The notes below the pieces were generated by a model that was given only the letters and a program-made list of their open reading frames with translations, made no database searches and was not told where the DNA came from. From Candidatus Dadabacteria bacterium (GTDB lineage Bacteria; Desulfobacterota_D; UBA1144; Nemesobacterales; CSP1-2): DNA of 11,397 nt. This document shows, piece by piece, positions 1 through 10,684 of the stretch; positions within the stretch are counted from its first letter, which is position 1, and every line of letters starts with the position of its first letter. Made by a program: the position numbers and the translations under genes. The stretch covers positions 65,377-76,773 of the forward strand of contig PSLL01000007.1 in assembly GCA_040289575.1 (NCBI GenBank), written 5' to 3'.

Positions 1-1174
1 TGGCAATCCCCCAGCCGGTACCAAAAAGAATTAGATAAGGCTCCTTCCCCCCGAGAATCTTCTCCTTGAGTTCTGAGTAGCCTGTTAAATTCTCTCTGGA
101 CCTCGCATCGGTTACAACTATCTTGGGTTTTGAACCCTCTACTCTTTCGATCTCCTCCAAGACCTCATATAGAGAGGTTTTTATCCGAACAATGCCAAGT
201 GCTTCGTTTCTTGTCGGATTATATAAAACCCCTGGTCCCTCTGTCCAGTGCCGAAGCACCCTTTCTACAAGCACCCTCTGTTCTTCAACAGGATGCACGA
301 GAAAAAATACCTTTACTCCATAAGTTCTACACGCCCTCGATATATCGTGAACGTCCAGATTCGTAAAAGCGGTAGTAACGATTTGGAGATCTTTATTGTA
401 AACTGGATAATGAACTAATGCAACATACACCCTAAAAGACGGCGGGTTTTCCCTCTTGAGCAGACTTATTAGTTTCAGCTCTTCGACTGTAAGCCTGGTT
501 CTATCGAGCAAATCCGGTCTCCTGAAAAAGGTTCTTTTAATACTCTCTTCTCTCCTCCATCTTTCAATCTCTCTGTGGTTTCCAGAAAGCAGAATTTCGG
601 GAACTGCTTTTCCCTTATAAATCTCCGGCCTTGTATACTGTGGATATTCAAGAAGCCCTTCTCTAAATGAATCATCATAAGGTGACTCCTCATTCCCAAG
701 GACTCCGGGAATGAGTCTTGAGACAGCATCAATTATAACAGAGGCAGCGTACTCCCCGCCTGAGAGCACATAATCGCCGATTGAAATCTCTCTACCCACG
801 TAGATTTCCCTAATTCTTTCATCCACCCCCTCATACCTTCCGCATATTATTATGAGTTGGTCGTACTCTATAAACTCCCTTGCGATTTTATCCGAGAACC
901 TCTCACCCTGAGGCGTTGTAAGTACAACAAGGGATTTCGCACCGTTGGCTTTTGCAGATTCTATAGCATCTCCAAGCGGTCCAGGTTTAAACACCATACC
1001 GCCCCCTCCACCGTAAGGCTTATCATCTACCGTACTGTGTTTATCTGAAGCGAAACTCCTTATGTCGTGTATGTTTATCTTTATTATGCCCTTTTCCTGA
1101 GCCTTTTTTAGAATCCCGAATGAAAACGGAGACTCAAAAAATTTCGGGAAAATGGTAAGAATGTCATACCTCAT
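1..1174 (-). CDS. trmD: tRNA (guanine37-N1)-methyltransferase TrmD fused to a C-terminal Tm1570/DUF2168-like SPOUT RNA methyltransferase domain (3' end outside window)
   Basis: Hand translation from ATG at 1174 gives 391 codons with no stop to the window edge. TrmD motifs: MRYDILTIFP, VDDKPYGGGGGMV, TTPQG, CGRYEGVDER, SIGDYVLSGGE, SRLIPGVLG, DSF, LLEYPQYTRP, VPEILLSGNH, RRPDLL. From about codon 247 (nt ~436): FRVYVALVHYPVYNK, TNLDVHDISRACRTYG, HW..G, YNPTRNEAL, LILFGTGWG. SD-like TGGAGA at 1185-1190. Canonical position after rimM. Confidence 0.95.
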   Translation of the reverse strand, partial: MRYDILTIFPKFFESPFSFGILKKAQEKGIIKINIHDIRSFASDKHSTVDDKPYGGGGGMVFKPGPLGDAIESAKANGAKSLVVLTTPQGERFSDKIAREFIEYDQLIIICGRYEGVDERIREIYVGREISIGDYVLSGGEYAASVIIDAVSRLIPGVLGNEESPYDDSFREGLLEYPQYTRPEIYKGKAVPEILLSGNHREIERWRREESIKRTFFRRPDLLDRTRLTVEELKLISLLKRENPPSFRVYVALVHYPVYNKDLQIVTTAFTNLDVHDISRACRTYGVKVFFLVHPVEEQRVLVERVLRHWTEGPGVLYNPTRNEALGIVRIKTSLYEVLEEIERVEGSKPKIVVTDARSRENLTGYSELKEKILGGKEPYLILFGTGWGIA

Positions 1175-1195
1175 AGCTTTCCAATCTCCATTTTT

Positions 1196-1268
1196 ATCAC
1201 AGAGAGCATTGAAGATTTTATATACAGAGAGTTTAATTAAAAATTCTTTCTCTGTAACCTCTGTAGAT
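1196..1268. repeat. Nested inverted-repeat element (ACAGAG x2 ... CTCTGT x2) in the rimM-trmD spacer
   Basis: TACAGAGA (1223-1230) is the exact reverse complement of TCTCTGTA (1249-1256). ACAGAG (1199-1204) pairs with CTCTGT (1259-1264), extended by ATC/GAT with one bulge. Confidence 0.55.
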
Positions 1269-1276
1269 ATTAATCT

Positions 1277-1795
1277 TTAATCGAGGAGTCCGCTCAAGGG
1301 AGAGATAACTATTCGTGAATCTTTAAGGTTTATCTCTTTTACCAGAGCATCAATCATTGGAATTAAGAATTCCTTTTCATCTTCTTTGACCACAAGGAGG
1401 CTTTGCGGTGCTCTATCAATTAAATTCTCTACACGCCCCACATATCCTCCATCAGTTGTATAGACCATAAGTCCTATGAGTTGAAACCAATAGTATTCAT
1501 CCTCTTCCGTTTGCACAAGATCGGAGGTATCAACCATAACTGAGCATCCGCGGAACTTCTCAGCATCATCTACTGATCTAATTCCTTCAAGCCCTATTAT
1601 AGCCGATTCCTTCTCGAGTCTCCTTCGGATTACCTTAAACTCCTGAGGTTTTTCTTCCCCACATTTTTGTATAAAAATCCTCTCCAGCCTTGAAAGGTTC
1701 TCTAATTGACGACTAAAGGGATGGACTCTCAGCTCCCCTAAAAGCCCATGCGCTTTTGAAATCCTTCCAAAAGGGATAAGACCCATTTCTCTCAC
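1277..1795 (-). CDS. rimM: 16S rRNA processing protein RimM
   Basis: GRISKAHGLLGEL N-terminus, EDEYYWFQLIGL motif and C-terminal PRC-barrel (EFLIPMI). 172 aa, between the KH-domain gene and trmD. GTG start at 1795 with AAGGAA upstream; ATG at 1786 is an alternative. Confidence 0.95.
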   Translation of the reverse strand: MREMGLIPFGRISKAHGLLGELRVHPFSRQLENLSRLERIFIQKCGEEKPQEFKVIRRRLEKESAIIGLEGIRSVDDAEKFRGCSVMVDTSDLVQTEEDEYYWFQLIGLMVYTTDGGYVGRVENLIDRAPQSLLVVKEDEKEFLIPMIDALVKEINLKDSRIVISPLSGLLD

Positions 1796-1807: not shown

Positions 1808-2047
1808 TTATTCAAGAATCTCAAGCACCGCCCGCTTCTTCATTTTGGCGGCAGCGGCACTGAGTATTGTTCTTATGGCTTTGGCGGTTTTTCCTTGCTT
1901 TCCAATAATCTTTCCCAAATCCTCAGGAGAGACCTTTAGTTCGAGCACCGATGTCTGCTCACCAGCAACCTCTCGCACCTCTACCTTCTCCGGGCTATCC
2001 ACAAGCGATTTCGCAATGTAGCTTACTAGCTCCTTTAGTTTCTCCAT
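1808..2047 (-). CDS. khpA: KH-domain RNA-binding protein (KhpA/YlqC, UPF0109 family)
   Basis: [20 protein letters not shown] GxxG loop, directly after rpsP. Start moved from 2077 to ATG 2047 because AGGAGGT (2055-2061) precedes it, giving 79 aa. Confidence 0.93.
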
Positions 2048-2113
2048 ATCCCTTACCTCCTGATTTTTATCCCTCAACTTCCCCTTGATCTCACATCTGT
2101 CTCAACTGAAGTC

Positions 2114-2347
2114 CTATATTAGTTTTGAGATAAGCCTCTCCACCCTTCCCGTAGGCTTTGCACCACGCCCAATCCAGTCTTTTACTCTTTCAATCTTTAC
2201 ATTAACTATCTGAGGGTCTTTTCTCGGGTCATAATAACCCAAAATTTCCAGAAACCTTCCGTCGCGCGGCGCGCGCGAATCGGCAGCCACGATTCTGTAA
2301 AGTGGTTGCTTGCTTGATCCCATCCTCGTAAGTCTTATTTTAACCAA
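2114..2347 (-). CDS. rpsP: 30S ribosomal protein S16
   Basis: MVKIRLTRMG...YRIVAADSRAPRDGRFLEILGYYDP...GAKPT. TTG start with GGGAGG SD at 2358-2363. Confidence 0.98.
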   Translation of the reverse strand: MVKIRLTRMGSSKQPLYRIVAADSRAPRDGRFLEILGYYDPRKDPQIVNVKIERVKDWIGRGAKPTGRVERLISKLI

Positions 2348-2454: not shown

Positions 2455-3786
2455 TTACATAAACCTCATCATTCTCTTTGCGAGTTTTCCTATCTTTCCC
2501 ATATTTTTCATCATATCCCGCATCTGAACATAGTTCTTAATCATCCGGTTTACATCCTCAACTCTTGTGCCGCTTCCCCTTGCAATCCTCCTGCGCCGAC
2601 TGCCGTTTAGTATTGTGTGATTTTTTCTCTCTTCCCTTGTCATAGAGTTAATTATGGCAATCGTTTTTTTAATCTCTTTCTCAGCCGCCTCGAGAGCCTT
2701 AGGGTTCTTAGCAACCTGTTTCATTCCAGGAATCATCTCCGCCATGCTTTCAAGGGAACCCATCTTACGCATGGCAATCATCGCTTCTTTGAAATCCTCA
2801 ATCGAGAACTCCCTCCTAAGAAGCTTTTTTGCCATCTCCTCAGCCTGCTTTTCCTCAAACGCAGTTTGAGCCTTTTCAATAAAGGAGAGCACATCGCCCA
2901 TGCCGAGGATTCGAGAGGCAATCCTCTCTGGATAAAACACCTCTAGGGCGTCGAGCTTCTCTCCAACCCCAAAGAACTTTATAGGCTTTCCCGTTACGGT
3001 CTTAATCGAGAGGGCAGCTCCACCCCTTGCATCTCCATCCATCTTCGTAAGTATTACACCATCAATATCGAGGGCATCGTTAAAGCTGGTCGAGACATTT
3101 ACCGCATCCTGACCCGTCATTGCGTCTACGACAAGAAGTATCTCATGGGGATTGATTTCAGCCTTTATTCTCCTGAGTTCATTCATGAGTTCTTCATCAA
3201 TATGGAGCCTTCCCGCTGTATCCATGATCACGACATCATATCCGCCATAAGCAGCGGCAGACATTGCATCCTTACAAATCTCAACCGGGTCCTTGCCCGG
3301 CTCGGTATCGTATACACCGACCCCAACCTGCTGGGCAAGCACACGGAGCTGTTCTACAGCGGCAGGGCGATAAACATCCGCAGGGACAAGATAAGGATTC
3401 CTCTTATTCTGCTTGAGGTATTTTGCGAGCTTTGCGGCAGTCGTGGTTTTTCCAGAACCCTGAAGCCCCGCAAGCATTATGCCCACCGGAGGGGCAGCCC
3501 TAAGGTCAAGCTCAGAGCTTTTTTCTCCAAGTGTTCTTACAAGCTCCTCATAGACGATTTTTATAAACTGCTGTCCGGGACTAAGGCTTCCGATTACCTC
3601 CTGCCCCATGGCGCGCTTCCTGACGGAATCTATAAAATCCTTTACTACCTTGAAATTCACGTCGGCTTCAAGAAGGCTGAGGCGTACCTCACGGAGCACC
3701 TCTTGGATGTTGCTCTCACTGAGCTTTCCATAGCCCCTTATTTTCTTTAAAGTTGAGTTGAGCTTTTCAGAAATCCCCTCAAACAT
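2455..3786 (-). CDS. ffh: Signal recognition particle protein Ffh
   Basis: LLEADV N domain, GLQGSGKTT P-loop, DTAGR, TKMDGDARGG, Met-rich M domain with SRRRRIARGSG. 443 aa. Confidence 0.98.
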   Translation of the reverse strand: MFEGISEKLNSTLKKIRGYGKLSESNIQEVLREVRLSLLEADVNFKVVKDFIDSVRKRAMGQEVIGSLSPGQQFIKIVYEELVRTLGEKSSELDLRAAPPVGIMLAGLQGSGKTTTAAKLAKYLKQNKRNPYLVPADVYRPAAVEQLRVLAQQVGVGVYDTEPGKDPVEICKDAMSAAAYGGYDVVIMDTAGRLHIDEELMNELRRIKAEINPHEILLVVDAMTGQDAVNVSTSFNDALDIDGVILTKMDGDARGGAALSIKTVTGKPIKFFGVGEKLDALEVFYPERIASRILGMGDVLSFIEKAQTAFEEKQAEEMAKKLLRREFSIEDFKEAMIAMRKMGSLESMAEMIPGMKQVAKNPKALEAAEKEIKKTIAIINSMTREERKNHTILNGSRRRRIARGSGTRVEDVNRMIKNYVQMRDMMKNMGKIGKLAKRMMRFM

Positions 3787-9926: not shown

Positions 9927-10684
9927 ATGTCTAATCAAGCACTAAAAGGAAAAGTTGTCGTTGTAGGCACAGGAGCGAAGAATCTAGGAGGGCTTATAAG
10001 CAGGTCGTTCGGTGCTTATGGTGCTTCCGTCGTTGTCCACTACAACAGCGACAGTACGAAAGCCTCAGCCGATGAGACTGTGAAAGCCGTCCAAGCCGCG
10101 GGCGGCGACGCCTTCGCCATTCAGGGTGATCTGACCAAGGTCTCTGAAGTCATCAGGCTGTTTGATGAAGCGGTCAAGCGCTATGGCCGCCTCGACATTG
10201 CGGTCAATACAGTCGGCAAGGTGCTCAAGAAGCCACGTTTGTCGAAACCACCGAGGAAGAATATGACACCATGTTTGCCATTAATGCGAAGGCGGCGTAT
10301 TTCTTTATCCATGAAGCTGGCAAGCAGATGAATGATGGCGGCAAGATCATCATTATTGTGACCTCACTTTTAGCGGCTTTCAAAGGGCTTTACTCAACCT
10401 ATGCAGGCAGTAAAGTGCCGGTAGAACATTTCACGCGTGCATCGGCAAAGGAGTTCAGCCCGCGCGGCATCTCAGTCAACAACATTGCGCCCGGGCCGAT
10501 GGATACCCCGTTCTTCTATCCCGCTGAGACGCCGGATTCGATTGCCTACCATAAGTCGCAGAGCATGAATGGCAAGCTGACCGACATCAATTATATTGTT
10601 CCCATAGTGAAATTCCTGGCGACCGACGGCTGGTGGATTACGGGACAGACGATCTTTGCCAACGGCGGCTACACAACGAGATAA
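9927..10684 (+). pseudogene. SDR family oxidoreductase, frameshifted
   Basis: GAKNLGG Rossmann loop, GDLT, DIAVNTVG in the first frame. FVETTEEEYDTMFAINAK, catalytic YAGSK, NNIAPGPMDT and WITGQTIFANGG in another frame. Frame change at ~10233-10237. SD AAGGAGGT upstream. Confidence 0.85.

Follow-up and report, generated by a model that had tools for sequence, protein, structure and literature searches.

A stretch of 11,397 nucleotides from a Candidatus Dadabacteria genome (GCA_040289575.1, contig PSLL01000007.1), referred to below as the window, begins inside a gene that we are confident encodes, as a single product of 430 amino acids, the essential tRNA methyltransferase TrmD fused to a second SPOUT methyltransferase domain of the Tm1570 type. 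The window corresponds to positions 65377-76773 of its contig, within a 3.06-Mb assembly of 126 contigs that is 95.35% complete, and the contig extends beyond it. Judged by its sequence, the N-terminal half of the protein (about residues 1-242) is almost certainly an orthodox TrmD, while a Tm1570 (PF09936) SPOUT domain with its own pocket for S-adenosylmethionine (SAM) makes up the C-terminal half (about 247-430). This fusion is the standard, fixed form of trmD across the phylum. The gene and its domains are arranged as follows.

Window 1..1174, minus strand: trmD-tm1570 fusion gene, codons 1-391 and the first base of codon 392.
L001 1374-1500, outside the window past a placeholder of 10 Ns: the rest of the trmD-tm1570 gene, comprising two nucleotides of codon 392, 38 codons and TAA.
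Window 449-1174, minus strand: whole TrmD half including the C-terminal helical domain, about residues 1-242.
Window 515..1108, minus strand: TrmD catalytic domain, PF01746 on residues 23-220.
Window 437..460, minus strand: junction LKRENPPS, residues 239-246.
Window 2..430, minus strand: Tm1570-type SPOUT domain, PF09936, with residues 249-391 in the window and its end at 428-430 outside.

Window 2..1174 on the minus strand is a single open frame of 391 amino acids that starts with ATG and is free of stops up to the window edge. An earlier note on this DNA, made from the sequence alone, had described such a frame from ATG 1174 that was absent from the accompanying track of open reading frames, and an open-ended listing confirmed it; the frame is missing from the track because the listing shows it only when open ends are allowed. 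The edge of the window is not the end of the contig. Ten Ns stand directly before window base 1, and beyond them lie 38 more codons and the TAA stop that the note had expected outside the window, although this fragment is out of frame if the spacing is taken as 10. It matches PF09936 model positions 145-181 and so supplies the C-terminal knot-forming part of the domain, which excludes the truncation before the second knot that the note had envisaged.

The domain junction and the gap were checked with assembled contigs from four publicly available sequencing runs that carry the label soil metagenome. Two long Logan contigs from two of these runs (57,093 and 50,618 bases) cover the gene completely, and over L001:1300-2700 no letter is changed in them; the sole difference in both is that 8 letters are left out at the N run. 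As 8 of the 10 Ns are left out in the bridging contigs, the real gap is 2 nucleotides and the frame is continuous. The two bridging runs are possibly the source of the assembly itself, and the contigs therefore count as independent assemblies rather than independent samples. The domain junction is also crossed by a contig of the third run (X4, record 9, L001 1721-2061), which is identical there; X3, the fourth run, is without coverage at the junction or the gap. None of the sequencing runs listed for the locus was derived from RNA. The bridging contigs and the third-run contig show no stop or frameshift near nucleotides 420-480, the region in which the earlier note had considered that two separate genes might be revealed. 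The database protein P0002, flagged as the window's own, has 430 amino acids and is 100% identical, its length being made up of 391 residues, one further residue (K392) and the final 38. A placeholder at the edge of a window can thus make a complete gene appear truncated. N placeholders within genes recur in the source assembly: a run of Ns also lies inside a gene beside rlmB (L089 164-1444, plus strand, contig C70), where it reads as 11 X, and the product of that gene looks by eye, with no profile scan made, like an NAD-dependent DNA ligase.

Scans with hidden Markov models placed both of the domains named in the note far above cut-off. The Pfam model PF01746 (tRNA_m1G_MT) matches at 216.9 bits (cut-off 27.3, E 2.8e-64) over model positions 2-195 of 195, and the TrmD equivalogs of NCBIfam are likewise passed, NF000648 with 313 bits (cut-off 220) and TIGR00088 with 297.7 bits (cut-off 195). 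PF09936 (Methyltrn_RNA_4, COG4752) matches the part inside the window, residues 249-391, at 189.3 bits (cut-off 22.6, E 7.5e-56, model positions 2-144 of 182); on the full P0002 the score rises to 263.5 bits and the match extends over model positions 2-181 of 182, the C-terminal knot-forming segment included. The linker between the domains comprises 6-8 residues, and in a predicted model the last TrmD helix (230-242) reaches the first Tm1570 strand (249-254) after about 6 residues. PF01746 matches at one place in the genome and PF09936 in one gene, in both cases the fusion reading frame, which is therefore the organism's only TrmD. The NCBIfam models for TrmJ, TrmL and TrmH gave no match to P0002 at E 0.001 or better, TrmD models alone being reported, and PF00588 stayed below its cut-off on this protein. 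Assignment of P0002 to the TrmJ/YjtD family (TIGR00050) was considered and rejected, as the cut-off is not reached and the resemblance is at the level of the fold only.

The catalytic motifs picked out in the earlier note, together with the linker LKRENPPS, are all present at the residues given: GRYEGVDER at 112-120, SRL at 152-154 and DSF at 168-170. The active site of Escherichia coli TrmD has been described as comprising E116, R154 and D169 (PMC1829167), to which E115, R153 and D168 correspond here by a reading of the motifs rather than from a printed alignment. E115 and R153 do not vary in an alignment of 32 homologues that are 62-88% identical to the fusion protein, and D168 is conserved in at least 90% of them. 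Ten SAM or Mg2+ contacts are named for the TrmD half of the fusion protein of Calditerrivibrio nitroreducens (bioRxiv 10.1101/2023.03.13.532328); six of these are identical here (G112, E115, I132, G133, S169 and E176) and four are conservative (Y135, L137, D167 and D168). Eight contacts are listed for the Tm1570 half, of which A357, G385, I405 and L414 are identical, while T, F and Y of the Calditerrivibrio protein correspond to D356, I390 and I423 here. The number that the preprint gives for the eighth, I409, mismatches the numbering of the chain, in which N stands at that place (N412 here). Residues of the Tm1570 half that are invariant in the 32 homologues are N272, L273, D274, H276, D277, R280, G385, T386, G387, G389, N412, H413, L414 and R417, and on this alignment the Tm1570 half appears to be as constrained as the TrmD half.

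The fusion is not confined to a single assembly. The best 120 listed matches from a database of 5.8 billion proteins all carry both Pfam domains, in proteins of 347-449 amino acids, and the named ones among the best come from metagenome-assembled genomes labelled Candidatus Dadabacteria, Thermodesulfobacteriota, Deltaproteobacteria or bacterium HR37. A full-length, uninterrupted frame is found in 38 of 40 relatives from 8 families and 23 genera, the other two being cut by contig ends. PF09936 is present in 115 of the 120 genomes of the phylum, including all 94 that are at least 90% complete, and in 108 of these 115 it is carried by one open frame of 431-477 amino acids. N runs, contig ends or single-base indels account for six of the seven exceptions, and the remaining genome (G086) has two partial matches. 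A run of 29 Ns lies in the linker of G098, and contig ends cut the genes of G034 and G018. G079 has one extra base in the TrmD half (L091 ~1305-1315), and G094 has one base missing from a G run in the same half (L092, reverse strand, ~1325-1335), both near residues 164-175. We read the frame breaks in these two genomes, which belong to different genera, as assembly errors. Programmed frameshifting was considered for them and rejected, since the sites differ, the shifts are opposite in direction and neither site is slippery. The fusion is kept even in a family with genomes of 0.8-1.1 Mb (f9, G101-G119), where PF09936 occurs in 17 of 19 genomes in frames of 431-454 amino acids. Outside the phylum, 13 of the 80 loci retained from the genome collection match both halves and 67 match the TrmD half alone; the former carry the labels Desulfobacteraceae, Desulfobacula, Desulfobacterales, Syntrophobacteraceae, Thermodesulfobacteriales, Thermodesulfobacteriota, Deltaproteobacteria, Myxococcales and Halanaerobiaceae. 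The earlier note had termed the architecture rare but not new: it is indeed not new (8b1n; PMC11187310), but rarity does not hold within this phylum, where it is the usual form of trmD.

Comparison with solved structures leads to the same protein that the earlier note had named as a described precedent, the Calditerrivibrio nitroreducens TrmD-Tm1570 fusion (PDB 8b1n; PMC11187310). P0002 is collinear with chain A of 8b1n, residues 2-427 aligning to 6-427 with an E-value of 1.5e-135, and its halves also match the structures that were solved for the single domains (8byh and 8ri0) and the Thermotoga maritima Tm1570 protein 3dcm. An AlphaFold2 monomer model was built from the 32-sequence alignment, and a Foldseek search with it returned 8b1n first (E 7e-48, 48% identity). 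The Tm1570 half of the model fits the 3dcm fold with a template modelling (TM) score of 0.87, normalised by target, and its top fold neighbours are, by a small margin, the tRNA enzymes TrmJ and TrmH. The knot cores of the Calditerrivibrio protein are placed at residues 85-129 and 352-397 (bioRxiv 10.1101/2023.03.13.532328), from which the following positions are expected here.

Window 788..922, minus strand: expected first trefoil-knot core, residues ~85-129, by alignment to the Calditerrivibrio protein, whose residue numbers coincide with those of P0002 here.
Window 1..121, minus strand: start of the expected second knot core, residues ~352-400, by alignment to Calditerrivibrio residues 352-397.

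With its core placed by alignment at about residues 352-400, the second knot straddles the window edge. By analogy with the crystal structure there should be one trefoil knot in each half, giving a double knot of the 3_1#3_1 type, and the protein should form a homodimer in which the TrmD halves are paired antiparallel and the Tm1570 halves perpendicular. The monomer model itself tells to some extent against so close a correspondence: it is of moderate quality (mean predicted local distance difference test score 77.4, predicted TM score 0.50), and its whole-chain TM score to 8b1n is 0.40, as the inter-domain orientation differs from that of the crystal.

By orthology, the TrmD half would near-certainly form m1G37 on tRNAs with G36-G37, using SAM and Mg2+, as has been shown for the Calditerrivibrio homologue. 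The Tm1570 half would most likely carry out SAM-dependent 2'-O-ribose methylation of RNA, most probably of the tRNA handled by the same enzyme, and we regard 2'-O-methylation of tRNA as a serious if tentative candidate for its function. COG4752 has been predicted to retain the catalytic Arg of SpoU-type 2'-O-methyltransferases, with a Ser shifted by two positions (PMC1829167). A weak hhalign match of the 32-sequence alignment to the genome's RlmB, in which the knot region alone aligned, gave the correspondence of motif 2 and motif 3 and the two-residue shift of Ser415. RlmB (TIGR00186, 234.5 bits) is the product of the only PF00588 gene in this genome, and across the phylum a similar poverty is apparent. 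TrmJ is over cut-off in none of the 120 genomes, with a single partial match of 132 bits where a contig of G084 ends, and nearly all of the 60 genomes that are at least 95% complete have a single RlmB-sized SpoU gene, extra copies being seen only in G019, G084 (partial) and G016 (fragment). Five genomes of one genus (family f7, genus g15: G020, G026, G030, G034 and G038), all at least 95% complete, give no PF00588 (SpoU/RlmB) match at all and retain the fusion. The fixation of the fusion throughout the phylum and the near-lack of SpoU-class tRNA methyltransferases argue that the second domain is probably functional.

It is conceivable, although we consider it doubtful, that the Tm1570 half is the only SpoU-like enzyme for tRNA in the phylum, and that it places an important methyl group on a ribose in the anticodon loop of the tRNAs that TrmD itself modifies, so that the fusion would be a coupled enzyme that leaves two marks. 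This proposal derives from the lack of TrmJ over cut-off in the 120 genomes, the occurrence of extra SpoU genes in only about 3 of 60 and the retention of the fusion in genomes of about 1 Mb. We infer, in line with the earlier note, that methylation by the two domains may be coupled. If the two-mark proposal were true, the lineage would offer a clean genetic background for assigning the Tm1570 product.

A simpler scheme, in which Tm1570 replaces TrmJ (Nm32), was examined and rejected. TrmJ and Tm1570 should exclude each other if Tm1570 stood in for TrmJ, and among 14 control genomes T. maritima alone has PF09936 and is without a TrmJ match, while four others are without both. One phylum represents one evolutionary event, and five independent fusion-bearing genomes of other lineages were therefore checked; a TrmJ-family gene is over cut-off in three of the five. 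That co-occurrence also weighs against the assignment proposed above for the Tm1570 half, as do several further observations. TrmL, considered as another enzyme that Tm1570 might replace, is over cut-off in none of the five genomes, two of which have strong TrmL-like matches below the cut-off (181.3 bits against 190.6, and 154.2 bits with one TAA), and phyletic complementarity indicates no specific tRNA position. The RlmB alignment is weak (probability 0.45%, E 0.13) and useful at the motif level only. No activity has been demonstrated for any Tm1570 domain, and the isolated Calditerrivibrio domain is reported to have 18 +/- 9% of the activity of the fusion on tRNA-Leu, comparable to the no-SAM control (PMC11187310). 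The earlier note took the RNA target of the domain to be unresolved, and no published assignment of a Tm1570 substrate, old or new, was found in the literature searched, including passages of a 2026 unfolding preprint.

The values near background obtained with the isolated domain on tRNA-Leu are what would be expected if the Tm1570 half were a non-catalytic module that assists TrmD through RNA binding or dimer stabilisation. The Calditerrivibrio TrmD domain alone retained 86% of the activity of the fusion, and its authors suggest that Tm1570 may help with substrate binding or stability (PMC11187310). We nevertheless think this quite improbable. The crystal structure has SAM in its Tm1570 pocket (bioRxiv 10.1101/2023.03.13.532328), the 32 homologues share without exception R280, the SAM-loop residues G385, G387 and G389 and the motif NHLSVR, a constancy beyond the needs of a scaffold, and other bacteria have free-standing Tm1570 genes (PMC11187310). 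Methylation of rRNA rather than tRNA during ribosome assembly, to which the surrounding operon might seem to point, also appears unlikely to us, since that operon is simply the normal home of trmD. The covalent attachment of the domain to an enzyme of tRNA suggests that both halves have a substrate in common, and the closest fold neighbours, by their small margin, are tRNA enzymes too. Furthermore, an RlmB-sized SpoU gene and the fusion occur together in most genomes of the phylum, so that Tm1570 is no general replacement for RlmB.

It has also to be asked whether the fusion could be an artefact of assembly, arising from adjacent genes joined by error or from a chimeric scaffold across the N run, as the Ns at the start of the window and the frame that is broken when all 10 are counted might suggest. 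This is extremely improbable, given that exactly 2 nucleotides occupy the gap in two independently assembled long contigs, which restores the frame, that the domain junction is clean in the third-run contig, and that the uninterrupted frames of the relatives and the two-domain composition of the best listed database matches, described above, tell the same story.

The genes upstream of the fusion on the minus strand of the window are listed below.

Window 1277..1795, minus strand: rimM (PF01782 and PRC barrel), the upstream operon gene.
Window 1808..2077, minus strand: KhpA-like KH-domain protein (PF13083).
Window 2114..2347, minus strand: rpsP, ribosomal protein S16 (PF00886).
Window 2455..3786, minus strand: ffh, signal recognition particle protein (SRP54 N, GTPase and M domains).

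With rplS downstream of the fusion gene, the cluster order is ffh-rpsP-KH-rimM-trmD-rplS, which is the conserved, classical neighbourhood of trmD. The spacer that separates the stop codon of rimM from the start of trmD is about 100 nucleotides long (window 1175-1276) and contains a hairpin at about 1223-1256 on the minus strand. The hairpin is formed by an 8-bp inverted repeat without mismatches (TACAGAGA ... TCTCTGTA) and has an 18-nucleotide loop and no T run after it. Rfam gave no match at gathering score within the window, this hairpin included. Elsewhere in the window, a short-chain dehydrogenase (adh_short / adh_short_C2) is distributed over two overlapping open reading frames in different frames on the plus strand (9927-10331 and 10271-10684), the first covering PF00106 model positions 1-87 and the second 104-187, possibly as a result of a frameshift or a sequencing error.

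The architecture, the crystal structure, the double knot and the TrmD-type activity of such fusions have already been published, and the gene described here is an ordinary further example. Fusion of TrmD to a COG4752 domain was reported in 2007 for three deltaproteobacterial sequences (Tkaczuk et al., PMC1829167). More recently 66 TrmD-Tm1570 proteins were counted in Pfam (Perlinska et al. 2024, PMC11187310), the Calditerrivibrio protein was reported to be dimeric with G37-dependent methylation (PMC11187310), and the crystal-structure preprint mentions 296 possible doubly knotted SPOUT proteins (bioRxiv 10.1101/2023.03.13.532328). What it contributes, modestly, is a comparative view: throughout a whole phylum, most of which is uncultured, the fusion is fixed, even in streamlined genomes, and this phylum, being otherwise almost without SpoU-class tRNA methyltransferases, provides a simple background in which to find the RNA target of Tm1570.

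The closest known system is the Calditerrivibrio TrmD-Tm1570 protein, which has both Pfam domains in the order found here, about 48% identity, a similar length (433 amino acids as compared with 430 here) and an equally short junction. About half of the residues and the lineage differ, however, the nearest named relatives of the protein described here being metagenome-assembled genomes labelled Candidatus Dadabacteria or Thermodesulfobacteriota, and here the fusion is fixed phylum-wide. In contrast, the T. maritima Tm1570 protein (3dcm) is a free-standing PF09936 protein, encoded by a gene that is separate from trmD and has a 7-nucleotide overlap (PMC11187310), whereas here the domain is covalently fused to TrmD. 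The single-domain TrmD enzymes of E. coli (1p9p) and Haemophilus influenzae (1uaj/4yvi) share with the fusion the TrmD equivalog models, the catalytic residues and the position between rimM and rplS, but the protein described here has about 185 additional C-terminal residues, which constitute the second SPOUT domain. Finally, P0002 is not a member of the SpoU-class tRNA 2'-O-ribose methyltransferases TrmJ, TrmH and TrmL, from which it is distinguished by the conserved Ser that is shifted by two positions.
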